NCBI GenBank assembly: GCA_043807135.1
Contig: JAZDGF010000001.1
Span: 68,573-132,572 of the forward strand
Direction of reading: 5' to 3'
Length of the DNA: 64,000 nt
Source of the DNA: Candidatus Levyibacteriota bacterium
Lineage (GTDB): Bacteria; Patescibacteriota; Microgenomatia; Levybacterales; UBA12049
Below the pieces are notes generated by a model. It did no database searches, was not told where the DNA came from, and saw only the letters and a program-made list of their open reading frames with translations. Position numbers and translations under genes: made by a program. Below, piece by piece: positions 15,462 through 45,917 of the stretch (positions within the stretch are counted from its first letter, which is position 1; every line of letters starts with the position of its first letter).

Positions 15462-15497
15462 CTTTTGGGCATAAATAGCGTATAATTCCTAATTAGC

Positions 15498-15859: not shown

Positions 15860-15892
15860 CAGAAAAACACGCGAAGGCGGGTTTTCTTATTA

Positions 15893-24722: not shown

Positions 24723-24727
24723 CAAAC

Positions 24728-24814: not shown

Positions 24815-24826
24815 CAATCTTTAGTT

Positions 24827-25243: not shown

Positions 25244-25254
25244 TATAAAGCCTT

Positions 25255-25341
25255 GGAGGGATCGCATAGTGGCCTAGTGCGCGCGCTTGGAAAGCGCGTA
25301 TGCCCGTAAGGGTATCGCGGGTTCAAATCCCGCTCCCTCCG
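25255..25341 (+). tRNA. tRNA-Ser (anticodon GGA), type II
   Basis: GGAGGGATCGCATAGTGGCCTAGTGCGCGCGCTTGGAAAGCGCGTATGCCCGTAAGGGTATCGCGGGTTCAAATCCCGCTCCCTCCG. Acceptor GGAGGGA/TCCCTCC, anticodon stem CGCGC/GCGCG, loop TTGGAAA, long variable arm. Confidence 0.8.
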
Positions 25342-25381
25342 CAACTTGACACGGAATATAAAATAATTCAAACTATACTTA

Positions 25382-30000: not shown

Positions 30001-30080
30001 GAAGCATTAGGTTTGCTTGTCAACGCTTCTTGACTATCTGTTTGGCCATTTGATGAAATATTATTTTCTTTTTCTGTCAT
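27051..30080 (-). CDS. large (1009 aa) acidic hypothetical protein with disordered Ser/Glu-rich N-terminus
   Basis: Single uninterrupted ORF, no TM segments, no recognisable catalytic motifs, ~100-aa low-complexity N-terminus. Lies inside the T4SS-like block on the opposite strand. Confidence 0.6.
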   Translation of the reverse strand: MTEKENNISSNGQTDSQEALTSKPNASKLGGEGDIFMSEEGPPGEHDRPTEHSSKSSSAATEVSISEESVKNVLEGLGLGEIAQENQRKRHQRNIAKGTAEKFFPDGGKETEEFTNDLTNAIDKSEKENRDNSSEKIYQEMIQELIKAESQEDFTKFLAIDVAWASMIANIESGIKNGSLNVNKFEEDESKKDEFLKDLEIARGLITKARKGELNFEREEDFRSARNLFLRLSGLETEHETREEKGIRDVTLGDFIKRFEGQFGYDTLLNSAEDLARLIMSAQDPEWRTGGKHELLDKEGKFKAENFLAWIRSRILYYHDLHSDAEVNLFSDIGVTTNYRSINFGEMMAYAKYFMTKVEKPDPKMGMLPTGDYHLPKKQENLKELLLIEVWLFQMSHNFNVKYHMVEGIEKDLPNALAEIHYNNIFTKNRNRLLKILMLSGNNAEELEWIIGKDKIEHQEKQGSVGKDIQKILLAYYHLSEIAYKPDGEEKNMFEEVLGEEGTLNFYRYIIGKTGGVEELEKISGETEMTKEIRDAAEKCLKNWELELNDLNIFNHPKKPEAIKELVNGAMVAAISDERIVFEILKKDYPKEYKELCLRFSIKELEDKEIMHAKEEAKYAVEWVSTMVRWMGIQARNDTKAIGFDGWSKLINTAEYRKGQYKDAKSAVGNIQNVFGLKRIGLNFLEATTVSEGDAYGEKSFKKTLLEILQGGQGNNVSIDEDIRAFSFKGNAQRKFIDDHVFNAFKFYEFITTHHGIDYSKMVVKGAYGRLQIIEEERDKVFKEFWKNTRYTFDLPEFLYGHEVREWWYEKDESGLDENGEEKDPILKFGEKKLEEHMFNEEVLSFNLYADKDGKPEADGTNRGLFKNGYRDPFDREFEGEGEAPEHVRKRLARLPFAYFIAKDLWSHRQEDEGYSWYSSMDIAAIEFLFKNFPYGIEEEDLDKDGKYKTTKKKSSFFTAKEFDQIEGMAQSRYKDLFREEFKKEGIAAFAHAGFVGTLKFLQAVMKGY

Positions 30081-30154
30081 GGCAAGAGAATTTTAAAAGA
30101 ATATAATATCGATAGCTTGATATTAACCCGACAAAAAACTTACAATATATCTAC

Positions 30155-31484
30155 CATGGATCCTAAATACTTTGAATCCCTGTATCCTAATACATCGCGC
30201 TTTAAAGAAATTGAGGAAATTTTAAGCTTTGTTAAAAACGGAAACTCTTGCCAACTTATTTCCTTTCCAGGAACCGGAAGGTCTAATATCCTGCAGCTTC
30301 TTGCCTATAATAGAGGCGTTAGAGAGAAACATCTTGGTGAAAAACAAAAATATGTCCATTTTGTTTACATGAATTTTTCAGAGGTAAGAAATCGCACTCT
30401 TCATGATGTAAATAAATTTATCTTTCTTTCTCTTATTGATTCTTTAACTGAACGAGAATTTTTAGAAGAGCACAAAAAGCTTAATAGGATTTTTAAAGAA
30501 TATTCAAAAACAAATGACGAATTAATTTTTTTTCAAGGATTAAAAGAAGCTCTTAATTATTTATCTATTGAAAAAAAACTAACAATAGTTCTTCTTTTTG
30601 ATAGATTTGAAGAATATCTTCCCGTACTCACTGATGAATTTTTTGCAAATCTTAGAATTTTAAGAAATAAGGCAAAATATCGTTTTTCTGCAGTATTCAC
30701 GCTTAACCGTCCCCTTGAAGATTTATTAAAGCCAACACTTTTTAATCAATTCTATGAATTTTTAGCAGGACATCTTGTTTATGTTTCTTTGTATGACAAG
30801 CCGGGAATGGATTTTAGAATTTCTTACTTTGAAAAAAAATATCAAAGGTCATTAGATAAAAAAACTTTAACTATCATTTTTTCTCTTACCGCAGGTCACG
30901 GAAAATTAACTCGCATTGCCCTTGAAACAGTTTTTGAGCAAAATATAAAAACCTTAACAAAAGAGGAAATTTTGCAATTATTACTAGCCAAAAAAACTAT
31001 TACCAGAGCTCTTTTTGAAATTTATAGCTTTCTTTCCAAAGAGGAAATAGAAAGACTTAATAAAAAGAGTAATGATAGCTTTTTAGAAAACATTGGCTTA
31101 TTTAAAGACAATAAAATCACAATTCTTCTTTTTGAAAAATATTTAGAGTTAAAAAAAACTTTTATCTCTACTGAAGATGAAAAAGATAAAATATTTATTG
31201 ATCATGAAACAAATGAAATTAAAAAAGGAAAAGAAAATCTTTCCGATAAATTAACTTCTTCAGAGTTTAAACTTTTAAAATATCTGTTGCAAAATCCTGA
31301 AAGAGTTATTGAGAGAAATGAGATTATTGAAGCTGTTTGGCAAAATACTGCCTCTTTTGCCGGCGTTTCTGATCAAGCAGTTGATCAACTTGTTCTTAGA
31401 ATTCGTAAGAAAATTGAAGACAATCCAAACAACCCCAACTACCTTTTAACGATTAAGGGAAGAGGATTTAAATTTATTCTCTAA
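30155..31484 (+). CDS. P-loop NTPase domain fused to C-terminal OmpR/PhoB-type winged-helix DNA-binding domain (putative transcriptional regulator)
   Basis: N-terminal Walker-A-like FPGTGRSNILQLL plus hhhhD Walker-B-like IVLLFDRFEE. C-terminal trans_reg_C-like segment LTSSEFKLLKYLLQNPERVIERNEIIEAVWQ...AVDQLVLRIRKKIE...LLTIKGRGFKF. Probable start ATG 30155 (MDPKYFESL). Confidence 0.65.
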
Positions 31485-31535: not shown

Positions 31536-32150
31536 GTGAGAAAAATAATTATATCGTTGGGAATTTTTTATATATTTTCTTTCCAACTTCCTCCTTTACA
31601 TCTAATTCATGCTCTCTTACCAGACAACGCAATGTGTGACAAAGATGAAGAATGTGCTTCCGGTGCCTGTGTAAAATACACACTTCCCGGAGAAGGGAAA
31701 ATTCGCAATACAGAAAAGCGCTGCGGTCCAATAGAAGATAAGGAAGCTAAGAAAGTTATTAACCCCGATGGTACAAAAACAGATTTGGAAGATGAGAAAA
31801 AAGTAAAGCAAGAACCCCTGCGTAATTCTCCTTGTAAGCAAGTGGGGGGTAAAGACAACGCTTATTTTAATTGTGATACTGGTTTAGGAATAACAATTAG
31901 TTCAAACCCAAAAGATTTTGTTAAAACTCTGTTTGGTGTAATTTTAAGTATCTCTGGAATGATAGCTCTCCTGCTTATAATATTTTCAGGGTATAGACTA
32001 ATCACCTCTCGGGGAAATCCAGAAAAAATTACAGATGCAAAAGACAGACTTACTTCTGCAGTTATCGGGCTCTTGTTTGTTATCTTTTCACTTGTTATAT
32101 TGCAAATTATAGGAGTTGATATTTTACATATTCCCGGATTAACAGAATGA
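31536..32150 (+). CDS. pilin-like protein (VirB2/TrbC-like candidate) with Cys-rich N-terminal domain
   Basis: Signal peptide, Cys-rich ~100-aa domain, then two hydrophobic helices flanking YRLITSRGNPEKITDAKDRLTSAV. This is a hairpin-TM topology shared with the next three genes. Confidence 0.5.
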   Translation: MRKIIISLGIFYIFSFQLPPLHLIHALLPDNAMCDKDEECASGACVKYTLPGEGKIRNTEKRCGPIEDKEAKKVINPDGTKTDLEDEKKVKQEPLRNSPCKQVGGKDNAYFNCDTGLGITISSNPKDFVKTLFGVILSISGMIALLLIIFSGYRLITSRGNPEKITDAKDRLTSAVIGLLFVIFSLVILQIIGVDILHIPGLTE

Positions 32151-32458
32151 AAGAATTAGTTCTTAAAATTAATGGGCAAGAAGTTCAAGCGCCTGAAGGA
32201 GTTCCAGTAGGAGGAGCTGATACAGGAAGTCAAATAATTTCCTTGAGCGTAACAGTTCTTTTTATAGTAGCAATTTTGCTTGCTCTTATATTTTTAATTT
32301 GGGGAGGAATTGATTGGACTACGTCTCAAGGAGATAAGAATAAAGTTCATGCAGCAAGAGAAAAGATAGTATATTCTATTATCGGACTTAGTGTAGTTTT
32401 ACTATCTTTTTTTATTGTTTCTCTAGTATCTGGTATTTTAGGAGTGAAACTTTTTTAA
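32147..32458 (+). CDS. pilin-like protein paralog (VirB2/TrbC-like candidate)
   Basis: TM - LIWGGIDWTTSQGDKNKVHAAREKI - TM. Shares the motif 'GG(I/V)xW(T/I)xSQGDK(N/S)KV..AR' with the 32518 paralog. 4-nt overlap with the upstream gene. Confidence 0.5.
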   Translation: MKELVLKINGQEVQAPEGVPVGGADTGSQIISLSVTVLFIVAILLALIFLIWGGIDWTTSQGDKNKVHAAREKIVYSIIGLSVVLLSFFIVSLVSGILGVKLF

Positions 32459-32517: not shown

Positions 32518-32934
32518 ATGAAAAAATTATTTGCCATCCCCACTTCAGTTGCTCTCTATCTTACTAACGCTCCTTTAGCTTTTGCACAAGGAACACCAAT
32601 TGATCCCTGCGCAGCATCAGACAGTAAATTCAATGTTCTTTGCGAGCTAAATGCTGGACAGTTTGGTAAGCTTGTTGGAACTGCTATTACTGCCGTTTTT
32701 GTAATTGCTGTTATTATCGCTCTTATTTATTTAATTTACGGCGGTGTTCGCTGGATAATGTCCCAGGGAGATAAAAGCAAAGTCCAAGAAGCAAGAAGTC
32801 ATATTATAGCTGCTGTTTTAGGATTAATAATTGTTTTCCTTGCCTACTTTATAATAAATATTATTCTCGGGGTGTTCCTAGGAATAAGTATTGATCAAAT
32901 AGAACTTCCTAACCTCAAGGACGCAATAAAATAA
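32518..32934 (+). CDS. pilin-like protein paralog (VirB2/TrbC-like candidate)
   Basis: Signal peptide (AFAQG), Cys pair, TM - LIYGGVRWIMSQGDKSKVQEARSHI - TM. Confidence 0.5.
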   Translation: MKKLFAIPTSVALYLTNAPLAFAQGTPIDPCAASDSKFNVLCELNAGQFGKLVGTAITAVFVIAVIIALIYLIYGGVRWIMSQGDKSKVQEARSHIIAAVLGLIIVFLAYFIINIILGVFLGISIDQIELPNLKDAIK

Positions 32935-32996: not shown

Positions 32997-33332
32997 TATT
33001 CCAAAAGGAGACCTATAGGAGGAGATTGGGGGGATTGTGTTCAGGAGGGAGTAGCAACTCTTTCTTGCATTCCTGTTGTTTTAGCAAGTGTTGTTAACTG
33101 GGCTTTAATATTTGCAGGCGTAGTTGCTTTAGTAATTGTAATTTTGTCTGGGATTAAATTTATAACCTCTAAGGGAGACAAAAAACAAGTTGCAAGTGCT
33201 AAGAGTAGTTTATCCTATGCAATACTAGGGTTAATTTTAATCTTTCTTTCCTTTTTTATAATAAGACTTATTGGTTATATTACAGGAGTTGATTGTATAA
33301 ACACTTTTGGCTTTAATAATTGTACTAGTTAA
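32997..33332 (+). CDS. pilin-like paralog, possibly pseudogene or non-canonical start
   Basis: The frame is open from 32997 and encodes ...GDWGDCVQEGVATLSCIPVVLASVVNWALIFAGVVALVIVILSGIKFITSKGDKKQVASAKSSLSYAILGLILIFLSFFII..., the same TM-motif-TM layout. There is no in-frame ATG; the ORF track starts it at TTG 33144, which lies inside TM1. A G6 homopolymer tract at 33028-33033 sits after an AGGAGG at 33018-33023. Confidence 0.35.
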   Translation, partial: YSKRRPIGGDWGDCVQEGVATLSCIPVVLASVVNWALIFAGVVALVIVILSGIKFITSKGDKKQVASAKSSLSYAILGLILIFLSFFIIRLIGYITGVDCINTFGFNNCTS

Positions 33333-34369
33333 TTATTTGCTCCTGCTTTTGCAACTCCTTGAGTAACAACTATAGACAAAAGAAATAATCCCGCAATTAA
33401 AAAAAGTATGTTTTTCCCATATTTTTTTTCTAGATCATCCGCTTCTTTATCCCCCATCACAATACCTATCATCTCCGTTGCATCTTCCTCGCTTAGTTCT
33501 TTCCCAAGAATAGCGTCAACAACCCCTTTATATTTTTCAGGATCGTTATTCTGAAAAAAATTCTCGAAATCAAAATTGCCATCCAATATTGCTTTTTTTT
33601 GGACATCATTCAACGGAGCATCTTTTAACCCTTCGCTTATTAGCTCTTTTCCTTTATTTACCTTTTCTTGGTCAATTTCACTTAAAAATTTATCCACATC
33701 TATTCCTAACTCTTTTAATCCTTGAAGGGCTAATTGCCCATGGTATTCACCTCTTTCCCCCTCAGCCTTTTTTGCACAAAATATTTTCGACAATTGCATC
33801 CTTTCCAATGAAGTATCTTCGCTTTTATCTTCTTTCTCTTTTATTTTCTCTCTCAAAGAAACTTCCTGACTATTAAAAAGATCATTTATAGTTTCCGGAG
33901 GACTTTCTATCTCTGTTGCAGATTCTTCTGGAAACTCAAAAGCATATATCCCTTTTTCTTTAAGAATAGCCTTATCCCCAGGAGTTACTTTATCAAGTTC
34001 TTTTTTCCACTCATTTAGAGAATAACTTTTACCGTCTAATTCAACTTTAATATTTTCAGATATCTCATCTAATGTTCCCTTCGCTTCTTCATCATCATAA
34101 AGATCTTCTAATGCCTCTACGTTAGCTCGTAATGCTTTTGAATTTTCTTCTACTCCTTTGCTCGCATCATATGTAAGAGCAAGCTCTCCTTTTTCTTTAT
34201 CAAGTTCCCCTCTATCTATTTTCTTACGAATTATTACTTCTGAGGCGCCAAAAAACTGTTGAGCTCTTTCTTTCCCTTTTTCTCTTAAACCCTCTCCTTT
34301 TGGAACTACACTCTTTTCAGGAATTTTAACTTCTGGAACTGGTGGTCCTTCTGCTGCTCCTTCACTCAT
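33329..34369 (-). CDS. acidic coiled-coil protein with C-terminal transmembrane anchor (tail-anchored)
   Basis: 346 aa, E/K-rich, predicted coiled coils, single C-terminal TM (ILFLIAGLFLLSIVVTQGVA). No catalytic motifs. Confidence 0.5.
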   Translation of the reverse strand: MSEGAAEGPPVPEVKIPEKSVVPKGEGLREKGKERAQQFFGASEVIIRKKIDRGELDKEKGELALTYDASKGVEENSKALRANVEALEDLYDDEEAKGTLDEISENIKVELDGKSYSLNEWKKELDKVTPGDKAILKEKGIYAFEFPEESATEIESPPETINDLFNSQEVSLREKIKEKEDKSEDTSLERMQLSKIFCAKKAEGERGEYHGQLALQGLKELGIDVDKFLSEIDQEKVNKGKELISEGLKDAPLNDVQKKAILDGNFDFENFFQNNDPEKYKGVVDAILGKELSEEDATEMIGIVMGDKEADDLEKKYGKNILFLIAGLFLLSIVVTQGVAKAGANN

Positions 34370-34423: not shown

Positions 34424-34759
34424 ATGTCCACTGGCAAAGCAGAAGCATTAGCAGCACAAATTAATCCTGAAGACAGGCCTATTGCAGTACGTGAATATCC
34501 AAAAGAAACCCCTGCTCCCAAGATTGAGATACCAACTCAAGCCCAGTCATCAGAACCAGTTAAGGCATCTGATATTAGAGAAGGTATGGTTAAAGGAGAT
34601 AAAGAAATAGAATTTAGCAAACATGCACAAAAGTTAGAGGCAGCAGATACTGATGCAAAAATTGAAGAAGTAAAAAGAGAACTAGAAGAACATTCTATAA
34701 GTCATAATCCTGTTTCTGGAGAAACTTCTTCTGATAATAATCCTTCTTTTTCCGAATAG
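34424..34759 (+). CDS. small acidic hypothetical protein
   Basis: 111-aa ORF, E/K/S-rich, no motifs; located within the T4SS-like block. Confidence 0.35.
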   Translation: MSTGKAEALAAQINPEDRPIAVREYPKETPAPKIEIPTQAQSSEPVKASDIREGMVKGDKEIEFSKHAQKLEAADTDAKIEEVKRELEEHSISHNPVSGETSSDNNPSFSE

Positions 34760-34856
34760 TTTTACCCACTTTTCACAGCCAGGCTCAAAAGTAACATTTT
34801 TTGAGCTATTTTGATTGTCTTGAATTGATATTTTTCACGTTATAAACTATTTTTAT

Positions 34857-36098
34857 ATGGAAAATCATCCAATTCCTCAAGATATTACCGGCTTTCAGTT
34901 TAAGCTTATAGGGAATATGACTGTTAGGCAATTTGCTTATCTTGCAGCAGGAATTATTATTGCATGGATTTTTTATATTCTTCCTCTTTATATTTTAATT
35001 AAACTCCCCTTTTCTTTAATATTTGGTTTATCCGGAGTTGCGTTTGCTTTTTTACCAATTGAGGGAAGGCCAATGGATCTTATGATTAATAATTTTGTAA
35101 AAGCTTTATTTAATCCAACTCAATTTATATATGCTAAAACAGGCGGACATTTTTATTCCCCTACTCATGTCCCAGTCCCTCACATAGCAGCCCAAAAACA
35201 AACTGCATCTTCATTATCAGGTGATAATTTAAAAAAATTCTTAGATAATCTTCCTAAAAGACCTCAAAATAAACTAGATGAGAAAGAAATGGTTTTTTTT
35301 CAATCTCTTACAAATATTTCAAACCCTACAGCTTCCCCTACAGCATCAATTATACCAACCTATACAGCTCCACATATTTTTTCAGCTGCCCCTGTTAGAG
35401 CAAGTGATCTTAAAAAGCTAGAACCTGAAAAAGAAAAAAAGCCAGAGCCTATTGATTCTCAGGAAGAAGAAAATCAAAATATTCTTCTAGGTAAAGCGTC
35501 TGTTTTAGAACAAGAGCTTCAAAAAGCAAAACAAGAAGAAATGAAAAAAACTCAAGGCTCTGCTGATTATAATGCAGCTCATCAAAAAGTACTTGAACTT
35601 GAAACTCTTTTAAATGAAACTGTAGCTCAAAAACAAGGACTTGAAAACAAAATTCTATCACTTCAAAAAAAGCTTGATATGCAGGGGAAAAAAGTTTATT
35701 CCCCTTCTTTAGCAGTCCCTGAAAAAGAACCTACTAAGAATATTCGAAGTATTCCAAAAGGCATGGGTAAAAGCATTGGTATTCCAAATGCTCCCGAATA
35801 TCCAAATCTAGTTACTGGAATTATTAAAGATCCAAGATCAAATCCTTTACCAAATATTTTAGTTGAAATAAAAGATTATGAAGGAAATCCAGTTCGGGCT
35901 TTTAAAACAAATGCCTTAGGTCAATTTGCATCGGCAACCCCTCTTGTTAACGGAACGTATACAATTGAATTTGAAGATCCTAATGGACAAAACAAGTTTG
36001 ATATTATACAGTTTAGTGTCAAAGGGGAAATAATACTTCCTGTTGAAGTTATTTCCGTTGATACAAGAGAAGAATTAAGGAGGACTCTTTTTAACTAA
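34857..36098 (+). CDS. membrane protein with PrgI/VirB3-like N-terminal two-TM module, coiled-coil region and C-terminal beta-sandwich (carboxypeptidase-regulatory-like) domain
   Basis: N-terminus ITGFQFKLIGNMTVRQFAYLAAGIIIAWIFYIL...LIFGLSGVAFAFLPIEGRPMDLMINNFVKA resembles PrgI/VirB3-family proteins that precede VirB4 in Gram-positive T4SS. C-terminus GIIKDPRSNPLPNILVEIKDYEGNPVRAFKTNALGQFAS...GTYTIEFE resembles a CarbopepD_reg/transthyretin-like fold. Confidence 0.45.
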   Translation: MENHPIPQDITGFQFKLIGNMTVRQFAYLAAGIIIAWIFYILPLYILIKLPFSLIFGLSGVAFAFLPIEGRPMDLMINNFVKALFNPTQFIYAKTGGHFYSPTHVPVPHIAAQKQTASSLSGDNLKKFLDNLPKRPQNKLDEKEMVFFQSLTNISNPTASPTASIIPTYTAPHIFSAAPVRASDLKKLEPEKEKKPEPIDSQEEENQNILLGKASVLEQELQKAKQEEMKKTQGSADYNAAHQKVLELETLLNETVAQKQGLENKILSLQKKLDMQGKKVYSPSLAVPEKEPTKNIRSIPKGMGKSIGIPNAPEYPNLVTGIIKDPRSNPLPNILVEIKDYEGNPVRAFKTNALGQFASATPLVNGTYTIEFEDPNGQNKFDIIQFSVKGEIILPVEVISVDTREELRRTLFN

Positions 36099-36100
36099 AT

Positions 36101-36766
36101 ATGAGTAAAGCTGCCCAAAGAATTCATGCAACAACTCAAAAATTTACAGAGATTGAAGAAATCTCTGAAGACATTGTCATTTTTCAAGGCGGAAATGCTA
36201 CTTTAGTAATTGAAGTAACCGCAACAAATTTTGCTCTTCTTTCAAGAGAGGAACAAGATACTAAAATCTATTCTTACGCAGCGCTTCTAAATTCACTTTC
36301 TTTTGCAATTCAAATAATTGTTAGAAGTAAAAAATTAGACATTACAGCATATTTAAAACTGCTCGATTCTCAAGCAAAGGCAACCCAGAATGAACTTCTC
36401 AAAAATCAAATAAGCTTGTATCGAGATTTTGTCCAGGAATTAGTTAAGGTAAATACCGTACTTGATAAAAAATTTTATATTTGTATTCCCTACTCTTATC
36501 TTGAAAAAGGAGTTGGTGCTACCGCAAGTTCGGTAAGCAAGGGCGGGCCAAAAGACAATTTTACAGAACAAGCAAAAGCTGCGCTTCATTCAAAAGCAGA
36601 AAGTATCTTGTCTCAAGTTGCAAGATTAAATCTTAGAGCAAAAGTTTTGGAAAAAGAAGAGCTTGTAAAGCTTTACTATGAAACTTACAACGATCAATCA
36701 ATTGAAACAAATCAAATAACAGATAATGTTAGAACACCAATTGTCAGAGGAGAGGAGAAAAAATAA
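36101..36766 (+). CDS. hypothetical soluble protein directly preceding virB4-like gene
   Basis: 221-aa ORF with no TM or motifs; its stop overlaps the VirB4-like start (ATAATG) suggesting translational coupling. Confidence 0.45.
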   Translation: MSKAAQRIHATTQKFTEIEEISEDIVIFQGGNATLVIEVTATNFALLSREEQDTKIYSYAALLNSLSFAIQIIVRSKKLDITAYLKLLDSQAKATQNELLKNQISLYRDFVQELVKVNTVLDKKFYICIPYSYLEKGVGATASSVSKGGPKDNFTEQAKAALHSKAESILSQVARLNLRAKVLEKEELVKLYYETYNDQSIETNQITDNVRTPIVRGEEKK

Positions 36767-38757
36767 TGTTTTTTGGAAAAAAGAAAAAAGATAACAAACA
36801 AACAATAGCACCTACTCAAAAAACGCCGACCTCAAAAGAGTTAGCAAAGGTGGAAAAAGGTATGGTTTCTTTATCAGATGTAATTGCACCTTCTTCTGTT
36901 GAAGTGGACTTTCATTATGTTCGAGTAGGAGAAAGGTATTACAAAACATTTTTTGTTGTTGGCTATCCACGCTATGTCTCCCCAAATTGGCTACAGCCTT
37001 TAATTGATTTTGATCATTCAATGAATGTGTCCATGTTTGCCTATCCCACCTCTTCTCCGGATGTTCTATCTGACTTAAGAAGAAAAATTGCTGAGATGGA
37101 AGCAACAATTTCTTCTCAGATTGAAGAAGGAAAAGTTGTTGATGCAAAAGTAAGAGCATCTCTTGATGATGCCCTGTCAATTCAAGAACAATTAGCAAAG
37201 GGGGTTGAGCGGTTTTTTCAATTCAGCTTATACATTACCCTTATCTCAGATCATCCAAAAGAACTTGAAGAGGCATCAAAAAGACTTTCGTCTACTCTTG
37301 GTTCAATCATGATGATTGCCAAAACTGCAACCCTACAAATGGAAGACGGATTTAAATCAAGTATTCCTATGGGTCAAGATAAATTATTTATTACCAGAAA
37401 CATGGATACAACTTCTCTTGCTTCTACATTTCCTTTTACATCAGCAACTCTTGCTCAGGAAAAAGGAGTTATGTATGGAATAAATGAGCAAAATGGATCC
37501 CTTGTTATCTTTGATCGCTTTTCCCTTGAAAATGCCAATGAGGTTGTTTTGGGAAAGTCAGGATCAGGAAAATCATACTTAATAAAGCTTGAGGTTTTAA
37601 GACAATTCATGTTTGGAACCGAAGTTATTATTATTGACCCTGAAGGAGAGTATGGACAAATTGCAAAAACTATGGGAGGAGAAGAAGTTGCCTTTACTCC
37701 TTCTAATCCAATTAAAATAAATCCGTTTGATTTATCAGGGCTTTACGAGGAAGGTGAAAATGAGCTTGGTCTTAAAATTCTTTCCTTGCATGGACTTTTA
37801 AGAATCGTTATGGGAGATTTGGATGCTGCCCATGACGCAATTTTAGATCGAGCACTGGTTGAAACCTACAGACAAAAAGGAATAACTACTGATCCGGCAA
37901 CACAGAAAAAAACTCCTCCTTTAATGGAAGATCTTTATAAAGTTTTATTGGGAATGGAAGATTCGCAAGCAGGAGAACTTGCGCTTCGCCTTGAAAAGTT
38001 TATTAAAGGAAGCTTGAACGGCATTTTTAATCAACAATCAAACTTTGATATAAAAAACGCTTTAACAATCTTTAATATTAAAGCCTTAGAGGAAGAACTA
38101 AGACCAGTTGCAATGCATATTATTCTTGATTTTGTTTGGACTAGGGTTAGAAAAACCCTTAAGAAGAGACTTTTAATACTAGATGAAGCTTGGTATATTA
38201 TGAAATATCCTGATTCAGCTTCCTTTGTATATGGGATTGCCAAAAGATCAAGAAAATACTATCTTGCCTTAACAACCGCAACCCAGGATGCTCAGGACTT
38301 CTTATCAACTGATTATGGAAGGGCAATTCTTTCCAACTCCTCTATCCAGATGCTTTTAAAACAAAGCCCAACGGAAATTGATTTGATCTCAAAAGTTTTC
38401 TATCTTTCCGAAGGAGAAAAAGAGCTACTTCTTTCAGCAGACATTGGAGAGGGGTTATTTTTTGCCGGACAAAGTCATGTTGCCATGAAGGTAATTGCAG
38501 CACCTTTTGAGCACACTTTAATTACGTCTAATCCTCAAGAAATTTTAAACATAAGGGAACAAGAGGAAACGGAAATAAAAGCTCAGGAAACAACTCAAGA
38601 TATGCCAATACAGCCAATTGCTCCTCCTATAGATCAAAAACCACAACCGCCATTGGAAGATAACATTTCAGAAACAAAACCACCTACTCCGGTAAATCTA
38701 GAGAGTGCCCCTCCAATAAATGATGCTCAAAGCACAATTCCGAATTCAAATACATAA
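36766..38757 (+). CDS. virB4: VirB4/TraE/PrgJ-family type IV secretion ATPase
   Basis: Walker A VLGKSGSGKSY, Walker B RLLILDEAWYIM, VirB4-like N-terminal membrane-associated domain, ~660 aa like Gram-positive VirB4 homologues (TcpF/PrgJ/TrsE). Confidence 0.85.
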   Translation: MFFGKKKKDNKQTIAPTQKTPTSKELAKVEKGMVSLSDVIAPSSVEVDFHYVRVGERYYKTFFVVGYPRYVSPNWLQPLIDFDHSMNVSMFAYPTSSPDVLSDLRRKIAEMEATISSQIEEGKVVDAKVRASLDDALSIQEQLAKGVERFFQFSLYITLISDHPKELEEASKRLSSTLGSIMMIAKTATLQMEDGFKSSIPMGQDKLFITRNMDTTSLASTFPFTSATLAQEKGVMYGINEQNGSLVIFDRFSLENANEVVLGKSGSGKSYLIKLEVLRQFMFGTEVIIIDPEGEYGQIAKTMGGEEVAFTPSNPIKINPFDLSGLYEEGENELGLKILSLHGLLRIVMGDLDAAHDAILDRALVETYRQKGITTDPATQKKTPPLMEDLYKVLLGMEDSQAGELALRLEKFIKGSLNGIFNQQSNFDIKNALTIFNIKALEEELRPVAMHIILDFVWTRVRKTLKKRLLILDEAWYIMKYPDSASFVYGIAKRSRKYYLALTTATQDAQDFLSTDYGRAILSNSSIQMLLKQSPTEIDLISKVFYLSEGEKELLLSADIGEGLFFAGQSHVAMKVIAAPFEHTLITSNPQEILNIREQEETEIKAQETTQDMPIQPIAPPIDQKPQPPLEDNISETKPPTPVNLESAPPINDAQSTIPNSNT

Positions 38758-38764
38758 ATAATCT

Positions 38765-41700
38765 ATGAATGGAAACAATAATCCTCTAGCAAAAATTTTA
38801 GCAATTTTAATTACCACTTATCCCGATCACGCCGAAGAGTTAGGAAGAATAACAAATCTTTTTCTAAAAGATCCTGAGAAGGCAAAGCTTGAATTATATA
38901 AATGGGAAAAATCTTCTAACATAAAACTTCCTGATCATATAACGCTTTTGATAGAACAAGAGTTACAACAGGGAAAAGAAGTCTCCTCTCGGGACAATAA
39001 TGAAAATCAAAAAAAGAAGAACAGCAAGGATTCAAAAAATCAACCATACAATGACGGTGCTTATATAGCTAAAGACCCAACCCCTGCAGAAAGATATAGA
39101 AAGGCCATAGTAAATAAATTTATTAGAAAACAATCAAATGAAAGAACAAGCAAAGATTACCTTGAAGAAAAAACGGTCTCTGAAAAAGATGTTTTTGACA
39201 AATGGTACGAGGAGAATACAAGGCTTGGAAAAACAAAATTTTCCGAAGAAGAAGTTAAGGCATATAAAGAAAGTGAAGAGTTTAAAAAAAAATTAATTTC
39301 AATAGTAGATGAAAAATATAAAAAAAAATTCGAAGGAGAAATTGCAGCATTTATCATTGCTGAAAAATCTAGGATATATGAAAATCCAAATGAAGATCCT
39401 GTAATAAAAGAGTATAAAAAAATTCTAGCAGAAGCTAATAAAAAATCTCCTGAAGAAGCAGAAAAAATAAAAAAAGAAGCCTCAAAAATCCTTCATGAAG
39501 AATTTACTCAAAAAACACTTTCCTACTCTAAGGACCTCCCAGAAATAAAAGAATACTTAATTAAAGTAAATAAAGAAATCCTAGTAGCTCCTTCGATAAT
39601 CATGCCTTCTTCTGTGTTTGAAGAAGAATCTTATTCATCAGAACCATTTGAAAATGATAACAATAATGAAGAAGTTTTCCCTTATTTTCAGGGAAATCAA
39701 TCTGAGCCCGAAAATGAACCTGATAAATCTGGGAATCAATCCTCGTCAAACAGGCCCAGCAGACCCAACAGAAGAACAATTAGAGAAATTAATCCGGAAA
39801 AAAATGTTGCTAGAAGAGCGGCTGGAAGAACGAGGGGGAAAGGTCAAAAAGCGCTTTTGCGATTTGGAAGAGTAGCTGTCCAAGTTGTTTCAAAAATCCC
39901 CCCGCATGTCTGGATTGTAATTATTGCACTTATTATTCTTGTTATTCTTATTTTTATGCTTTTTGGACTTTTCGACGATCCATTAGAAAACGGTGGTGTA
40001 TATAATATATCAAAATCTGCAGATAAAGAGGCTGTGGCCAATCCTCCTGACGATCTTAACTATCTTACGGCATTATCTACTCCTCAAGATATTACATACA
40101 CAATTACTGTTTCTTATTCTGGAAAAGCCCAATCTGTTACGGTTACAGATCCCATTCCAGAAAACGCAATCTTAGTTTCTGCTGATAACGATGCTGAGTT
40201 TTTAGATGAAAATGGCAATATAATAACTGATAAAAACCTTGCAAGAACAGTTACTTGGACTATCACTCCTGAAGCATCATCAGGAGGAAATCTGTCTAAT
40301 CCAGCTAATACGACATTGGGAGATTGGTTAAATAAAAAGCTTTCAGAAAATCCACTTCGCTTAGGGCTAAGCGGCATGGGACCAACGATTGCAAATTTAT
40401 CAGCAAAATACAATGTCCCAATTGAGCTCGCGCTGGGACAATTTGCCTTAGAAACCCAATGGTATTCAGATAAAGGAGTTACTGTTACCCAAGGATCAAA
40501 TAATCCAGGCAATATTTTATGCAATCCTGATCTTAGGCTTGGAGCAATTGGAAATGATATTGTTGACCGCCTGGGAACCCATTATTGTAGATTTTCCTCT
40601 CTTGAGAGCGGACTTGAAGCATATTTTAAACATTTAGATAGTTCTACTTATCGAAGTGCAGTTGATGAGTTTATTAAAACAAGCAATCCTAGACCCGTTA
40701 TCCATATTTACTATTCATCTTCAAATGACCCAAGTAGCGGAAACGAAAACAGCTATGTAAATACTGTAAACAATATTACAAAAGATTTAAGAGACGCTGC
40801 TGTAATAGATGGTGTAAATCTTGCTGTTTCCTCTTCTTTCAATGAGCAGTATAATAACGCTACTTCTAGTTTTACCCTAGCTTTAAGACCCAAACCTGGT
40901 GCGAAAGATACATATATTATTAACCAGGCATTTGCAAGTGGAGCTGGAATATCAATATGCACAGGAGGATCAACAGTTGTTCTTGACCCCGGACATCCAA
41001 GCGAAGTTGGTATTGGAGGGGCGGGAAATGGAGTTAATGAAGTTGAAAAAGTCTTAGAGATTGCAAATATTATAAAACCAAAGTTAGAAGCAAAAGGATA
41101 CAGTGTTATCTTAACCAGAAATAATAATACAACTAGGGTTACAAATAAAGCGAGGGCGGAAACCGCAAATAGTGCAAATGCTTCTTTAATGTTCAGAATT
41201 CATACTGACGCTGGAAGAACTGACAGGGGAGTTGCGTATTATTATCCAGCAGAACAAGGAACAGTTGATGGAGTTACAGGCCCAAGCAGTGAAGTTATTG
41301 AAAAAAGCAAACAAGCAGCGACTGCCATCCTGAACACAACCAGGGATACTCTCATTGGAAACGATATGCCACTTTTTAGAGGAGGCCTTCTAACTGATGC
41401 TGATACTGCGGTAGGAAAGAAAAATGGGGGAGCTTTAGCGGGGTCTATTTATTCATCGGTTCCAACTGTGCTTGTGGAACTGGGAAGCCTCACCAACGCT
41501 ACCGATGCCACCTGGCTTAAATCAACTGATAATTTAAATAAATATGCTGATTCATTAGCGTCTGGAATTTCCAATTTTGCAGGGACCTCTACCTGCGCCG
41601 ATTCTAATAACGATTTTCCCACTAATTATGTTGGCACTGGAGGGTATACTCCTCTTCAGGGTCAATGGGAAGGAACTACTCAAAAGCTTACTGACTATCT

Positions 41701-42145
41701 TCTTGCAAATAACCCTTCTCCCAAATTTACTGTTTCAACATTAACTCTTGCGGGATATTATATAAAATATGCTGCAGAAGTAAATCTTCGAGCAGACATT
41801 CTTTGGGCACAAATGATTCATGAAACAGGTTTTGGAAAATATGGAGGAGATGTTTTGCCAAGCCAAAATAACTTTGCTGGTGTTGGAGCAACCGGAAATG
41901 GAGAAGAAGGAATATCGTTTGTCACCGCAGAAGCTGGTGTAAAAGCACAAATTGCCCACATGGCAGCTTACGTATACACAACTGATATTACTTCATGGAC
42001 TAATTCCCAAACAGATCCCCGCTATGACTTAATAATCCCCAGAGGAATCGCAAAGTCCTTAAATAATCTTGACGGAAGATGGGCTATTCCCGGAAACGGA
42101 TATGGAACAACTATTGAAAATTATGTAAGAATTATTAATCAATAA
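38765..42145 (+). CDS. membrane-anchored multidomain peptidoglycan hydrolase (glucosaminidase-like + Amidase_3 + glucosaminidase-like); T4SS-associated lytic enzyme candidate
   Basis: K/E-rich ~370-aa N-region, single TM (VWIVIIALIILVILIFMLF). Glucosaminidase-like segment (LGQFALETQWYSDKG...NNPGNI). Amidase_3 motifs (VVLDPGHPSEVGIGGAGNG...LTRNN...ANSANASLMFRIHTDAG...PTVLVELGSLTN). Second glucosaminidase-like segment (ADILWAQMIHETGFGKYGG...NNFAGVGATG). Confidence 0.75.
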   Translation: MNGNNNPLAKILAILITTYPDHAEELGRITNLFLKDPEKAKLELYKWEKSSNIKLPDHITLLIEQELQQGKEVSSRDNNENQKKKNSKDSKNQPYNDGAYIAKDPTPAERYRKAIVNKFIRKQSNERTSKDYLEEKTVSEKDVFDKWYEENTRLGKTKFSEEEVKAYKESEEFKKKLISIVDEKYKKKFEGEIAAFIIAEKSRIYENPNEDPVIKEYKKILAEANKKSPEEAEKIKKEASKILHEEFTQKTLSYSKDLPEIKEYLIKVNKEILVAPSIIMPSSVFEEESYSSEPFENDNNNEEVFPYFQGNQSEPENEPDKSGNQSSSNRPSRPNRRTIREINPEKNVARRAAGRTRGKGQKALLRFGRVAVQVVSKIPPHVWIVIIALIILVILIFMLFGLFDDPLENGGVYNISKSADKEAVANPPDDLNYLTALSTPQDITYTITVSYSGKAQSVTVTDPIPENAILVSADNDAEFLDENGNIITDKNLARTVTWTITPEASSGGNLSNPANTTLGDWLNKKLSENPLRLGLSGMGPTIANLSAKYNVPIELALGQFALETQWYSDKGVTVTQGSNNPGNILCNPDLRLGAIGNDIVDRLGTHYCRFSSLESGLEAYFKHLDSSTYRSAVDEFIKTSNPRPVIHIYYSSSNDPSSGNENSYVNTVNNITKDLRDAAVIDGVNLAVSSSFNEQYNNATSSFTLALRPKPGAKDTYIINQAFASGAGISICTGGSTVVLDPGHPSEVGIGGAGNGVNEVEKVLEIANIIKPKLEAKGYSVILTRNNNTTRVTNKARAETANSANASLMFRIHTDAGRTDRGVAYYYPAEQGTVDGVTGPSSEVIEKSKQAATAILNTTRDTLIGNDMPLFRGGLLTDADTAVGKKNGGALAGSIYSSVPTVLVELGSLTNATDATWLKSTDNLNKYADSLASGISNFAGTSTCADSNNDFPTNYVGTGGYTPLQGQWEGTTQKLTDYLLANNPSPKFTVSTLTLAGYYIKYAAEVNLRADILWAQMIHETGFGKYGGDVLPSQNNFAGVGATGNGEEGISFVTAEAGVKAQIAHMAAYVYTTDITSWTNSQTDPRYDLIIPRGIAKSLNNLDGRWAIPGNGYGTTIENYVRIINQ

Positions 42146-42184: not shown

Positions 42185-42841
42185 ATGTTTAAAAAAACAC
42201 TTTTGCTATTTTTTTCACTAACAGTTATTTTTATTGTGTTTAAAAATAACGCCCTATTCTATGGAGGGGATTCTTATGCCGCAACTAACCAGGGCTCTCA
42301 AACAGCAAGTGAATGTGTAATCGTTAAGGTAGGAAATCCAACAGCAGATCCTGACACTTCAAAATGCAACACCTTTTTGGGCACTGCTTCAAGTTATGCT
42401 CTAAAAGCTATTGAGCTCGCGAGAAGCCAAAAAGGGAAAATGTATTTATGGGCTGCTTGTCATGGTGATTTATCAAAAAGCCCACCCCCCGGGGGATGTG
42501 CAAATTATGATTGTTCGGGTCTTACAAGATGGACTTGGTATTGGGCAACTGATGGAAAAGTCAACGATCTTGACCAAACGGCTACTAACTGGGATGCGGG
42601 ATATGGTAATTTTGAGAAGTTTGACAAGAGTCAGGTTGCCCTTATTCAACCAGGAGATCTTGTTTATTTTGGGCCATCAAAAGCCGACGCATCCCATACA
42701 GGAATCTACGCTGGCCTAGGTGACTGTGGCGCAAACGACTGCTTTATTCATGCTCCTGGAACAGGAAAAGCTGTTACAGAATATAGTTTATCTAAAAGAA
42801 CAAATTTTATTGGTTTTCTTAGGCCTATTGTTGTAGAATAA
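42185..42841 (+). CDS. secreted NlpC/P60-family peptidoglycan endopeptidase
   Basis: Signal peptide; catalytic Cys region KMYLWAACHG...GGCANYDCSGLTRWTW and His region HTGIYAGLG...FIHAP, consistent with NlpC/P60 (Cys-His-His). Confidence 0.75.
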   Translation: MFKKTLLLFFSLTVIFIVFKNNALFYGGDSYAATNQGSQTASECVIVKVGNPTADPDTSKCNTFLGTASSYALKAIELARSQKGKMYLWAACHGDLSKSPPPGGCANYDCSGLTRWTWYWATDGKVNDLDQTATNWDAGYGNFEKFDKSQVALIQPGDLVYFGPSKADASHTGIYAGLGDCGANDCFIHAPGTGKAVTEYSLSKRTNFIGFLRPIVVE

Positions 42842-42845
42842 AAAT

Positions 42846-43331
42846 ATGAATTTAACATCTTTCTTTCAAAACAAAAAATTTTTAATAGGTTCTCTTATTG
42901 CTCTTTTTTTTATCGTAGCTTTAATCGTTATTTTTGTCATTAGCAGTCTTTTTAAAACCGTCGATGAACAGCCCCTTATCAACACAGATGAATTCGTAAG
43001 CCCTACAACAATGCCTGTTATCACTACAAAAATTATTCAAAATATTGAAAAAGAAATTAGGGAAAATATAGAAGCTGCCATACCTAGTGAAAATATTAAT
43101 ATATATGAACCAAGGCTTTATGAAGATTGGGCAATTGTAACTATTGAACCAAAAGATCACATAACCGATGCTGCAAATCTACTTTTACATAAAGAGGAAA
43201 ATCAATGGAAAATAATCCTCGGACCGGGTACTTTTTTCGACGAAGAGTCACTGATTGAAGTAAGTGCCCCCATCTATCTTTTTGATGAGATAAACCGAAT
43301 GTCTATTCCTGCACCCGAATCGGCATTATAA
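42846..43331 (+). CDS. hypothetical membrane-anchored protein
   Basis: 161 aa, N-terminal TM (IGSLIALFFIVALIVIFVISSLF), no motifs. 3' end overlaps the dnaN 3' end (convergent) by ~29 nt. Confidence 0.45.
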   Translation: MNLTSFFQNKKFLIGSLIALFFIVALIVIFVISSLFKTVDEQPLINTDEFVSPTTMPVITTKIIQNIEKEIRENIEAAIPSENINIYEPRLYEDWAIVTIEPKDHITDAANLLLHKEENQWKIILGPGTFFDEESLIEVSAPIYLFDEINRMSIPAPESAL

Positions 43332-44412
43332 GATGTAGGAAGTTAGAATTTCCTTTAATTTTAAAAACTCCAGGGCTTAATGGGCCGCTCATTTCAAGAA
43401 TTAAATCTTCATCTTCTACGTTCCCTAAAAAATCTAGAAGGTATCTTGCATTAAAAGCTATCTCGTTTTCTTCTCCTTCTGTTTTTGCCTCAACCTCTAC
43501 CCTGTTTTCTCCAACAGAGGGGGTATTTGCTGAGACGATAATTTTATCTTCTTCAATCGAAAATTTAACAATGTTTGCAGTATCTCTTGCAAACACGGAG
43601 CAGATTTTGACAGCATTTAACATTTTTGCCTTTTCAAATAAAGATACTGTGGAAGAACTTGTTGGTAATATTTTTTCAAAAGCAGGATACTCTGCTTCTA
43701 TCAGCCTCCCCACAAGAATTGTTTCCCCTTGAGAAAAAATCACCTGGTTTGATTTATCAGAAACCAAAACAGAGACATAATCTCCCTCTTCTTTAATGGA
43801 AAAAAGTTCTCTTAAAACACGGGAGGGAATCAGCATTGAGACGGATTTCCCTTTTTTTCCTCCAGCTGAAAAAGCTCTTCTTAAAGAAAGTCTGTATCCA
43901 TCTGTTGCAACCATTGTAAAGTCTTTTGCGTCTTGGGTCATTAAAACGCCTGATAATGCCGGTCTTCCGCTATCTTGAGCTGCTGAAAAAACAATCTTTG
44001 AAAGCTCTTTCTCAACATCTGTTCTTAATATCCTTGCAACCTCTTCTCCTTTCCCCTCGTAGATGTTAGGGAAGTCTTCTGCTGGCATTGTTTGGAAAAT
44101 TGCTTCTACTTTCTCCCCTTTAAGCATTAAGTTTTGCTTTTCATAAGATAGTTCTATTTTTCCCTCCCCCATGTTTAAAAGCAGGTCTGAAAATGTCTTT
44201 GCTGGCACAGTTATGGCCCCCTCTTTTTCAATGCTTGCAGAAACGTGAGCTATTATTCCAATCTCTAGGTCTGTTGCGCTTATTTTAAGTCTCCCCTTTT
44301 TTGTTTCTATAAGAAAGTTTGAAAGAATAGGAAGCTGACTTCTTGTCGAAACAGCGTGGTTTAAAAATGATATTTTCTTTTGTAAATTTTCCGCTAAAAG
44401 TATTGCTTTCAT
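43303..44412 (-). CDS. dnaN: DNA polymerase III beta subunit (sliding clamp)
   Basis: MKAILLAENLQKKISFLNHAVSTRSQLPILSNFLIE...three-domain clamp, 369 aa, immediately downstream of dnaA. Confidence 0.9.
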   Translation of the reverse strand: MKAILLAENLQKKISFLNHAVSTRSQLPILSNFLIETKKGRLKISATDLEIGIIAHVSASIEKEGAITVPAKTFSDLLLNMGEGKIELSYEKQNLMLKGEKVEAIFQTMPAEDFPNIYEGKGEEVARILRTDVEKELSKIVFSAAQDSGRPALSGVLMTQDAKDFTMVATDGYRLSLRRAFSAGGKKGKSVSMLIPSRVLRELFSIKEEGDYVSVLVSDKSNQVIFSQGETILVGRLIEAEYPAFEKILPTSSSTVSLFEKAKMLNAVKICSVFARDTANIVKFSIEEDKIIVSANTPSVGENRVEVEAKTEGEENEIAFNARYLLDFLGNVEDEDLILEMSGPLSPGVFKIKGNSNFLHLIMPIRVQE

Positions 44413-44540: not shown

Positions 44541-45917
44541 CTAGTATTCCACACGTTTTTCACTATTTATTTTAGTTATTCTCATTATATCCTCACCAAT
44601 TTTAGTTTTTTTCATTAAAGCTTCTATTTTTTCCACACCATACATAATAGTTGTGTGATCCCTTCCCCCTAAAAGGTTGCCAATTTCAACAAGCGTGAGA
44701 TTTAATTCGGTTTTTAAAAGATACATTGCAACTTGCCTTGCCCTTACTAAAGAGGAATCTCTCTTTGCTCCTTTAATTTGAGTTTGTTTAATTCTATAAA
44801 AAGAGCAGACGTTTTTTATTATGTCATCTGGATGAAAAACGCTAGCATCTTCCCTTTTCTTGCTTTCTAAAATTTCGTCTAGGATATCATCAGTAAGCTC
44901 CCCGTTTGCTGTACTTGCCCTAGTGACAACTCTAAGTAAAACTCCCTCCAAGCTTCTTCCATCAAGATCTTGTTCAGCAATCCTTTTAGCTGCTTCCATA
45001 GATAGTTCAAAGTTATATTTTTTTGCTTTTATTAAAAGAATTGCAGTTTTTAACTCAAAATCAGGTGGTTCAATATCAACGGTTAGCCCCCCTGAAAATC
45101 TTGATAAAAGTCTTTTTTCAACCTTTTTCATTTCAGAAGGAGGTCTGTCTGAAGAAAGAACGATTTGAGATCCGTTATCAACAAGAATGTTAAAAGTATG
45201 GAAAAGTTCCTCCTGAATCTTTTCTTTACCAGCAATAAACTGGATATCATCGATTATTAAAAGGTCAAGCCCTCTAAATCTTTTCTTCATCAAAGAAGTT
45301 GCATTTGTTCTGATTGCTTCTACTACCTCATTTGTAAACTCCTCGCTTGTGATATAAGCAATTTTTTTTTCAGGATGTTTTGCATAAACATCATTTGCAA
45401 TCGCTTGCATTAAATGGGTTTTTCCTACTCCTACCGGTCCGTATATAAAAAGAGGGTTGTACGCTTTCCCAAGTTTTTTAGCAACTGTTGTTGCACTAAC
45501 ATAAGCAAGTTGATTACTTGAAGAAACCGCAAGATTTTCAAAAGTATATTCAGATCTTACTCTTGGCAGGTGTCCAAGCGTTTTTTTTGTCTTTTCGTTT
45601 ATTGAAAAAAGGGGGCCTGGGTCATTTGTTTTATCCTTAATAATAGTTTTTGGGACAAAAAGTAAATCAATATTTTTTTTAGTGTGTTTGTCAAGAGATT
45701 TTTTAATAATTTGATAAAACCTTCTTTGTAATAGGTCAATAATCATACTTGAAGGAGCAGCAACGGTTGCCGTAGTGTTATCCATTGTAAAAAGAATAGT
45801 TGGCTTAAAAAGTGTTAAAAAATTTGCACGAGAAACTTCAGTTTCAACTTCTCCCAAAACTATTTTCCACAACTGATCAAGATCTTTTTTTTCCATAAGC
45901 AGAATTAGCCACCCCAT
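44541..45917 (-). CDS. dnaA: chromosomal replication initiator DnaA
   Basis: AAA+ Walker A GPVGVGKTHL, Walker B LLIIDDIQF, C-terminal DNA-binding helix-turn-helix (RQVAMYLLK...TLVEIG...GGRDHTTIMYGVEKI). Confidence 0.93.
   Translation of the reverse strand: MGWLILLMEKKDLDQLWKIVLGEVETEVSRANFLTLFKPTILFTMDNTTATVAAPSSMIIDLLQRRFYQIIKKSLDKHTKKNIDLLFVPKTIIKDKTNDPGPLFSINEKTKKTLGHLPRVRSEYTFENLAVSSSNQLAYVSATTVAKKLGKAYNPLFIYGPVGVGKTHLMQAIANDVYAKHPEKKIAYITSEEFTNEVVEAIRTNATSLMKKRFRGLDLLIIDDIQFIAGKEKIQEELFHTFNILVDNGSQIVLSSDRPPSEMKKVEKRLLSRFSGGLTVDIEPPDFELKTAILLIKAKKYNFELSMEAAKRIAEQDLDGRSLEGVLLRVVTRASTANGELTDDILDEILESKKREDASVFHPDDIIKNVCSFYRIKQTQIKGAKRDSSLVRARQVAMYLLKTELNLTLVEIGNLLGGRDHTTIMYGVEKIEALMKKTKIGEDIMRITKINSEKRVEY

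Follow-up and report, generated by a model that had tools for sequence, protein, structure and literature searches.

The feature considered here, a VirB4 ATPase encoded by two genes, is already known from the chromosomal type IV secretion systems (T4SS) of ultra-small Patescibacteria. The VirB4 proteins of these systems form a monophyletic clade related to the mating-pair formation type MPF_FATA, and the most abundant T4SS component in Patescibacteria is TrsD, a remote homologue of the VirB4 N-terminus that is encoded beside virB4 and is essential in S. epibionticum ML1 (Quinonero-Coronel et al., 2025, Microb Genom, PMC12102498; the ML1 system is that of Wang et al., 2023, as cited in PMC12102498). 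The same study lists as further parts PrgI/VirB3, arrays of 2-11 divergent VirB2-like pilins, especially in Microgenomatia, and hydrolases encoded 3' of virB4; the locus often adjoins dnaA/dnaN, and relaxases are nearly absent (PMC12102498). The VirB4 N-terminal domains touch VirB3 and VirB8 and anchor the motor; the T4SS of S. epibionticum is essential for epibiotic growth, and the Patescibacteria system is described as the first T4SS on which the bacterium carrying it was demonstrated to depend for survival (2025 FEMS review, PMC12857230). Here we analyze a stretch of 64,000 nucleotides (the window in what follows) of Candidatus Levyibacteriota bacterium (assembly GCA_043807135.1, contig JAZDGF010000001.1), in which two adjacent genes, 36101-36766 and 36766-38757, very probably encode jointly one T4SS VirB4 in the form of two polypeptides, within a locus of the Patescibacteria type that is more likely to be used for host interaction than for conjugation.

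Judged from its sequence, the locus is a typical Levybacteria (Microgenomatia) example of the Patescibacteria-clade chromosomal T4SS. The genes are arranged in the order pilin array, PrgI, TrsD-like gene, VirB4, wall hydrolases and dnaN/dnaA, such that VirB4, the TrsD homologue, PrgI/VirB3, the pilin array, the downstream hydrolases, the proximity to dnaA/dnaN and the absence of a nearby relaxase are all shared with the systems described previously (PMC12102498). The proteins encoded in the window are 59-88% identical to many proteins from metagenome-assembled genomes (MAGs) of Patescibacteria, with the best homologues in Levybacteria/Patescibacteria. No recognisable VirB6 was found here, as has been noted likewise for Microgenomatia (PMC12102498). 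The locus shows no essential difference from the described systems; the minor ones are that PrgI adjoins the VirB4 genes, compared to the 22.6% association reported for Microgenomatia VirB3 matches (PMC12102498), and that an apparently lineage-specific insertion splits the pilin array from PrgI.

The second of the two genes (36766-38757, forward strand, ATG start) encodes a protein of 663 amino acids (aa) that is, on sequence evidence, a genuine VirB4-family T4SS ATPase with predicted catalytic activity. Its best family match is the NCBIfam model NF045971 (conju_CD1110, VirB4-like; 391.9 bits, cut-off 325), and not a non-T4SS ATPase of the HerA or FtsK families; weaker NCBIfam matches are to VirB4 of the Mycoplasma integrative and conjugative element (ICE; 256 bits), to F-type TraC (168 bits) and to TIGR00929 VirB4_CagE. 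The Pfam matches are P-loop_TraG, DUF87 (HerA central domain; 44 bits) and AAA_10, whereas PF03135 (CagE_TrbE_VirB) matches neither this protein nor the product of the preceding gene at E <= 0.01, a miss that is uninformative given that other VirB4 models match strongly. The only PDB structure matched by the ATPase sequence is 4ag5, a VirB4 C-terminal domain (E = 1e-45, residues 233-588). The Walker A motif GKSGSGKS (37552-37575, forward strand) and the Walker B motif LLILDEAW (38170-38193, forward strand) are both intact: in an alignment of 22 homologues, K264, G266, G268, K269 and S270 of the former and L469, L470, D473, E474, A475 and W476 of the latter are invariant. Relatives of the ATPase include more than 100 Patescibacteria proteins of 578-773 aa that are 70-88% identical to it. 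The placement in the VirB4 family rests on relative bit scores and on pairwise comparison with TrsE. These results bear out an earlier note on this DNA, made from the sequence alone, which had recognized the VirB4-family ATPase with both motifs and had named AAA_10 and PF03135 as the families to be sought.

The same note described the protein as VirB4-sized, which is only approximately correct: at 663 aa, it is ~100-200 aa shorter than the full-length VirB4 family models that it matches (752-894 positions; TcpF 813). The missing part is N-terminal. NF045971 is matched only from position 172 (positions 172-734 of 752), and therefore the first ~170 positions of VirB4 are absent from the 663-aa polypeptide. 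Residues ~40-230 correspond to the second half of the VirB4 N-terminal domain; these are followed by the RecA-like C-terminal domain (233-588) and by a P/Q-rich disordered tail of about 75 residues (~590-663). The ATPase thus lacks a complete N-terminal domain in one polypeptide, and only the two genes jointly make up a complete member of the VirB4 family.

The first gene (36101-36766, forward strand) encodes a soluble TrsD-like protein of 221 aa, without a transmembrane (TM) segment, which we assign to the N-terminal piece of VirB4 (PF26593, family name 'TraC-like'). The same sequence (100% identity) occurs in a Candidatus Levyibacteriota MAG, where it is labelled a hypothetical protein. The library of Pfam models that we scanned, which did not contain PF26593, yielded no match; this family is, however, precomputed for the identical protein P0001 and for most of the 120 relatives listed. 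Altogether 968 relatives were detected with a word index at E <= 0.001, and each of the 120 listed is a stand-alone protein with a length of 208-224 aa and 59-86% identity to the protein from the window. Among the NCBIfam models, VirB4_plasma (Mycoplasma VirB4, 894 positions) is matched at positions 102-233 (E = 2e-10), and NF041427 (TrsD/TraD) is matched weakly along almost its entire length (positions 10-200 of 201, E = 8e-4). Many of the TrsD-like homologues (P0347, P0320 and P0257 among them) are 300-715 aa long and combine a domain of ~210 aa with a long tail; in many homologues, this tail comprises 100-500 aa, is Q/P/N-rich and is apparently disordered. A comparable, shorter tail in the window sits on the C-terminus of the ATPase (~590-663) instead. 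Our literature search found no publication on PF26593, nor any on TrsD, TrsE and VirB4 together.

The relationship between the two genes is revealed by a fused homologue. A profile built from 29 homologues of the 221-aa protein was compared to 1.84 billion representative proteins, resulting in 2480 matches at E <= 0.001, which always fall on residues 1-225 of the targets. Among these targets is P0284, a single-chain VirB4 of 787 aa from another Patescibacteria contig, which itself matches the CD1110 model from position 3 to 735 with 388.5 bits. Residues 6-205 of P0284 align with the 221-aa protein (44% identity, E = 1e-54) and residues 213-787 with the 663-aa ATPase (59% identity), so that 36101-36766 and 36766-38757 are collinear halves of one VirB4. 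Given that the comparison of the 221-aa family profile to the PDB sequences yielded matches at chance level only (E >= 0.6), the link to VirB4 required this fused homologue together with a fold search. In the latter, the top 11 Foldseek matches in the PDB for the AlphaFold2 model of the 221-aa protein are R388 TrwK/VirB4 chains (probability 0.94-0.99); taken alone, this predicted fold provides modest evidence that agrees with the sequence evidence. In addition, hhalign comparison of the 221-aa profile to TrsD of pSK41 gave E = 3.7e-5. The N-terminal residues 1-38 of the ATPase (36766-36880) have no equivalent in P0284: the piece opens with MxFFGKKKK, a conserved motif, and continues with a variable linker, both absent from the fused protein. 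Only the split form would have this start, which may act as a docking or membrane-proximal peptide.

At the junction of the two genes (36753-36768, forward strand), the sequence AGGAG (36753-36757) is followed by a run of six A (36758-36763) and by TAATG, in which the stop codon TAA of the 221-aa open reading frame (ORF; 36764-36766) overlaps the ATG of the ATPase gene, beginning at 36766, by 1 nucleotide (nt); AGGAG is located 8 nt upstream of this ATG. The earlier note had given the sequence ATAATG with overlapping stop and start and had proposed translational coupling, and the overlap and tight arrangement stand. In the related loci L001-L003, PrgI (357-414 aa), a TraC-like protein (218-223 aa) and a VirB4 ATPase (671-710 aa) are encoded in the same order, with the latter two genes separated by +5, -4 and +1 nt, respectively; the junction sequences differ, such that the spacing is tight but variable. 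Given that TAATG and AGGAG are not conserved, coupling of the two genes by re-initiation is only plausible. PF26593 is found on none (0/120) of the closest ATPase homologues listed (578-773 aa). In the fused locus L004, which encodes P0284, PrgI overlaps the start of virB4 directly. The split of VirB4 is thus a conserved state rather than damage, and the fused form represented by P0284 is rare in Patescibacteria.

The same division is found outside Patescibacteria. In the staphylococcal plasmids pSK41/pGO1 (MPF_FATA, pGO1 subclass), TrsD (227 aa) is located directly before a short TrsE (672 aa), and the order of the pSK41 genes is the same as in the window, namely, pilin-like TrsB, TrsC (VirB3), TrsD, TrsE and then a hydrolase. 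The split point is also the same, with residue 38 of the ATPase from the window aligned with residue 36 of TrsE. The sequences have diverged considerably: TrsE is 26% identical to the ATPase, and the similarity to TrsD is detectable at the profile level only. Furthermore, the conjugative plasmid pSK41 encodes a relaxase, a coupling protein (TrsK) and the membrane proteins TrsF/TrsL, none of which are found beside the locus in the window. A similar arrangement is present on Firmicute megaplasmids (Pontibacillus NZ_CP062975 and Geobacillus pGspE55-1), where PrgI is followed by a 'hypothetical protein' of 274/318 aa and a VirB4 of 621/636 aa; the 274- and 318-aa proteins are homologues of the 221-aa protein, with tblastn E values of 4e-24 and 7e-11, respectively. 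In Pontibacillus, a peptidoglycan DD-metalloendopeptidase gene is located directly after VirB4, with pilin-like genes upstream, and in Geobacillus pGspE55-1, a hypothetical gene separates VirB4 from an M23 peptidase. The ATPases of these Firmicute loci are 30-35% identical to that from the window, and their PrgI is short (102-116 aa), without the helical and beta-sandwich extension described below. Single-chain VirB4 proteins, both those of the MPF_FATA type (CD1110 family; T. pseudethanolicus, 4ag5) and R388 TrwK/VirB4 (PDB 7o41-7o43, 8rtb, 8rtd), share the ATPase fold and motifs with the 663-aa protein, and the 221-aa protein is the counterpart of their first ~170-200 residues. Thus, CD1110-family VirB4 and TrwK consist of one polypeptide each, whereas a separate gene encodes the first subdomain here and in most Patescibacteria.

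Immediately upstream of these two genes lies the gene for an extended VirB3/PrgI-like membrane protein of 413 aa (34857-36098, forward strand). Pfam PrgI (PF12666) matches its residues 5-91 with 38.4 bits (cut-off 27), and CarboxypepD_reg matches residues 319-376 below the cut-off (28.3 bits, cut-off 32.3). The AlphaFold2 model, with a predicted local distance difference test (pLDDT) of 63, consists of a TM hairpin (23-41 and 46-65), disordered linkers, long helices (202-230 and 236-275) and a C-terminal beta-sandwich (320-399), for which Foldseek retrieves CnaB2/transthyretin-like folds (E = 1e-5). This architecture recurs in more than 100 clusters, and the identical protein is named 'PrgI family protein' by NCBI. 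The description in the earlier note, a VirB3-like module extended by coiled-coil and beta-sandwich domains, is therefore accurate. The accompanying proposal that this module had moved one gene upstream did not hold: when VirB4 is read as two genes, beginning with the 221-aa gene, PrgI still directly precedes VirB4, and the order of VirB3 followed by VirB4 is canonical. Topology of the 413-aa protein presents a puzzle, given that a two-helix hairpin should leave both termini on one side of the membrane; by analogy with VirB3, this would be the cytoplasmic side, also for the C-terminal CnaB/transthyretin-like sandwich, whereas CnaB/transthyretin-like domains are usually extracellular. Consensus matches indicate a terminator-like site (34782-34807) and a promoter-like site (34825-34853) ahead of the PrgI gene, with no further terminator-like site on the forward strand by such matches until ~39.6 kb; this arrangement is consistent with an operon comprising PrgI, the two VirB4 pieces and the hydrolase gene that follows.

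Several observations weigh against the two-gene interpretation of VirB4. The TrsD model scores 19 bits on the 221-aa protein, far below its cut-off of 200, and the probability of the hhalign match to TrsD of pSK41 reaches just 71%; the mean pLDDT of 64 makes the AlphaFold2 model of the 221-aa protein only a moderate one, and its Foldseek matches to TrwK/VirB4 have weak E values (5e-3 to 6e-2) and TMq of 0.37-0.46. The TAATG overlap and AGGAG are not conserved in L001-L003, and neither VirB6 nor VirB8 could be identified confidently at the locus. The absence of a Pfam match in the scanned library and the position of the 221-aa gene directly upstream of the ATPase gene would fit the view of the earlier note, in which this gene is an unrelated orphan, possibly with a VirB8/PrgL-like fold of the NTF2 type, that occupies the VirB3 slot and leaves the VirB3 module pushed upstream. 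This view is extremely improbable given the collinearity of the 221-aa protein with residues 6-205 of P0284, the NCBIfam matches to the VirB4 N-terminus and to TrsD, and the precomputed PF26593 assignment, all of which identify the supposed orphan as a separately encoded VirB4 N-terminal subdomain. As to the VirB8/PrgL candidate itself, the structure comparison suggested in that note was made and returned TrwK/VirB4 at the top, with no VirB8 or NTF2 fold among the Foldseek matches; there is also no corresponding family match and no TM anchor. An assignment of the ATPase to a non-T4SS translocase of the HerA/FtsK family, to which the DUF87 match could point, is practically excluded by the far higher scores of the VirB4 models (391.9 bits for CD1110, 256 for the Mycoplasma ICE VirB4 and 168 for TraC against 44), by VirB4 being the single PDB match and by the neighboring PrgI and T4SS pilin genes.

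The junction itself allows two other explanations. It falls within the homopolymer AAAAAA (36758-36763), where one base gained or lost would fuse the reading frames, as expected if the split were damage or an artefact, that is, a frameshift or a sequencing error in a single virB4, a pseudogene or a mis-assembly. There is hardly any chance of this: the 120 listed of the 968 relatives are stand-alone proteins of 208-224 aa, the short form of the ATPase is conserved as well, and the split recurs with other junction sequences in L001-L003, on Firmicute plasmids and in pSK41; the 59-88% identity of the pieces among relatives further implies that both are under strong purifying selection. If AGGAG stimulated a programmed -1 ribosomal frameshift on the A-run, a fused full-length VirB4 would be produced besides the two pieces; by manual inspection, the -1 slip would read ...EEKK-IMFFGKKKK... 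in frame, and GAG AAA AAA TAA with AGGAG directly 5' resembles signals of the dnaX type. However, the heptamer does not follow the canonical X XXY YYZ pattern, the A-run, AGGAG and frame relation are all unconserved in L001-L003 (+5, -4, +1), and trsD and trsE of pSK41 are separated by 14 nt, which makes such frameshifting very improbable. Of a different kind is the possibility that the locus is the mating-pair formation module of an integrated conjugative element that transfers DNA. CD1110, the closest curated family, is that of a conjugation ATPase, the genes are arranged collinearly with trsB-trsG of pSK41, and among the 5000 best-scoring plasmid records that contain a relative, 3847 are classified as conjugative. 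Nevertheless, the ORFs scanned in the 64-kb window include no relaxase, coupling protein (T4CP) or integrase family, the GC content is even across the window, no sign of an element boundary is present at the nearest tRNAs, the flanks consist of housekeeping genes, synteny of the locus beside dnaN/dnaA is conserved in other genomes, and relaxases have been found in only 103 Patescibacteria genomes (PMC12102498). Accordingly, we consider a conjugative role unlikely, and an apparatus of the Patescibacteria type with a two-gene VirB4 remains the interpretation that we adopt.

VirB4 is encoded in one cluster with other T4SS parts, namely PrgI, three T4SS_pilin genes, the Amidase_3/Glucosaminidase protein and NlpC/P60. 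The VirB2-like pilin array (31536-32150, 32147-32458 and 32518-32934, forward strand) consists of three genes whose products each contain two TM-like segments and match Pfam T4SS_pilin with 43.7, 34.9 and 34.2 bits (cut-off 26.6); orthologous arrays are present in L001-L003. Between this array and PrgI, there are two ORFs, one of 346 aa with a C-terminal TM segment (33329-34369, reverse strand) and one of 111 aa (34424-34759, forward strand), which match no family and lack a counterpart in L001-L008; they resemble a lineage-specific insertion. Directly 3' of the ATPase gene is the gene for a bitopic cell-wall hydrolase of 1126 aa (38765-42145, forward strand; TM segment 370-409, DUF11, Amidase_3 and Glucosaminidase), which is the functional counterpart of VirB1/PrgK/TrsG. 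Its highly charged N-terminal region of ~370 aa before the single TM segment is probably cytoplasmic, and a weak similarity to the gene 3' of virB4 in L003/L002 is limited to this region. The catalytic domains encoded after virB4 vary by lineage, with Amidase_3/Glucosaminidase here and M23 in L004 and in the Firmicute loci. The next gene encodes an NlpC/P60 peptidoglycan endopeptidase (42185-42841, forward strand) with an N-terminal signal or TM segment (Pfam NLPC_P60, 38.4 bits), followed by a small membrane protein, dnaN (43303-44412), dnaA (44541-45917), rnpA, yidD and yidC.

Several genes upstream of the pilin array could also be related to the system. The product of 30117-31484 (forward strand, TTG start; 455 aa) contains an OmpR/PhoB-type winged helix at residues 378-453 (Trans_reg_C, 74.7 bits) and no receiver domain; in L001 and L003, orthologues with 54% identity occupy the same slot, ahead of the pilin array, which makes this protein a candidate for a dedicated regulator of the T4SS locus. 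A polytopic membrane protein of 533 aa with ~7 TM-like segments (25382-26983, forward strand), tentatively included as a part of the system, has no Pfam or NCBIfam family match and is homologous (E = 3e-21) to a 575-aa gene product encoded at the matching relative position in L004, the locus with the fused VirB4. The 533-aa protein could represent the highly divergent 'missing' VirB6 of Microgenomatia. Between these two genes, and divergent from the T4SS locus, lies a gene for a soluble protein of 1009 aa without a family match (27051-30080, reverse strand). The same slot is filled by genes for proteins of ~990-1090 aa in L001-L004; given the absence of detectable sequence similarity among them, the 1009-aa protein cannot be claimed as a conserved component, and it may be a fast-evolving or replaceable cargo. 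A tRNA-Arg gene and two tRNA-Ser genes are located at 24650-25342, upstream of the candidate VirB6 gene. Housekeeping genes occupy the remainder of the window, including those for penicillin-binding proteins, smpB/tmRNA, an aminoacyl-tRNA synthetase, ruvABC and IMP dehydrogenase (IMPDH); smpB and the tmRNA gene are at 15015-15860 (tmRNA at 15498-15860, tag ADYSYSRGPKLAYAFA).

Combining the two-gene structure of VirB4 with its genomic context, we propose the following scenario. The 221-aa product constitutes the first subdomain of the VirB4 N-terminal domain, and the 663-aa product the remainder of this domain together with the RecA-like ATPase domain. Both proteins would be translated from one mRNA in near-equal amounts through tight coupling and would re-associate in trans into a VirB4 protomer. 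By analogy with the VirB4 N-terminal domains in the R388 structure, the TrsD-like piece may dock on the cytoplasmic face of the PrgI/VirB3-like protein, with the ATPase piece forming a hexameric motor ring. This motor could drive the extraction and polymerisation of the VirB2-like pilins and/or the passage of a substrate, with the amidase/glucosaminidase and NlpC/P60 enzymes opening the cell wall. Given that the locus is on a Patescibacteria chromosome and adjoins dnaN/dnaA, and that neither a relaxase nor a coupling protein is among the ORFs scanned in the window, it is most likely used for host-cell interaction rather than for conjugation. One could further speculate that the TrsD-like subdomain, as a free protein, works as an adaptor, dosed separately, that links the PrgI/VirB3 platform to the motor and, where no coupling protein is encoded nearby, recruits substrates or gates the assembly of the ATPase ring. 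This additional role is a long shot; if it were real, the Patescibacteria machine would contain a control step that is absent from single-chain VirB4 systems.

The two-gene VirB4 is a real and, as predicted from its intact motifs and conservation, functional feature, and the window brings no new kind of system. The only additions made here are the collinearity of the two products with a fused Patescibacteria VirB4, the split point common to TrsD/TrsE of pSK41, and the structural support for the assignment. Furthermore, a misreading in the current annotation can be corrected: the upstream 'hypothetical protein' is the first domain of VirB4, and the motor of this T4SS is a two-gene enzyme. The counts of T4SS components in Patescibacteria genomes are affected accordingly, and since the VirB4 motor is encoded by two genes, modelling of the complex must include both chains.

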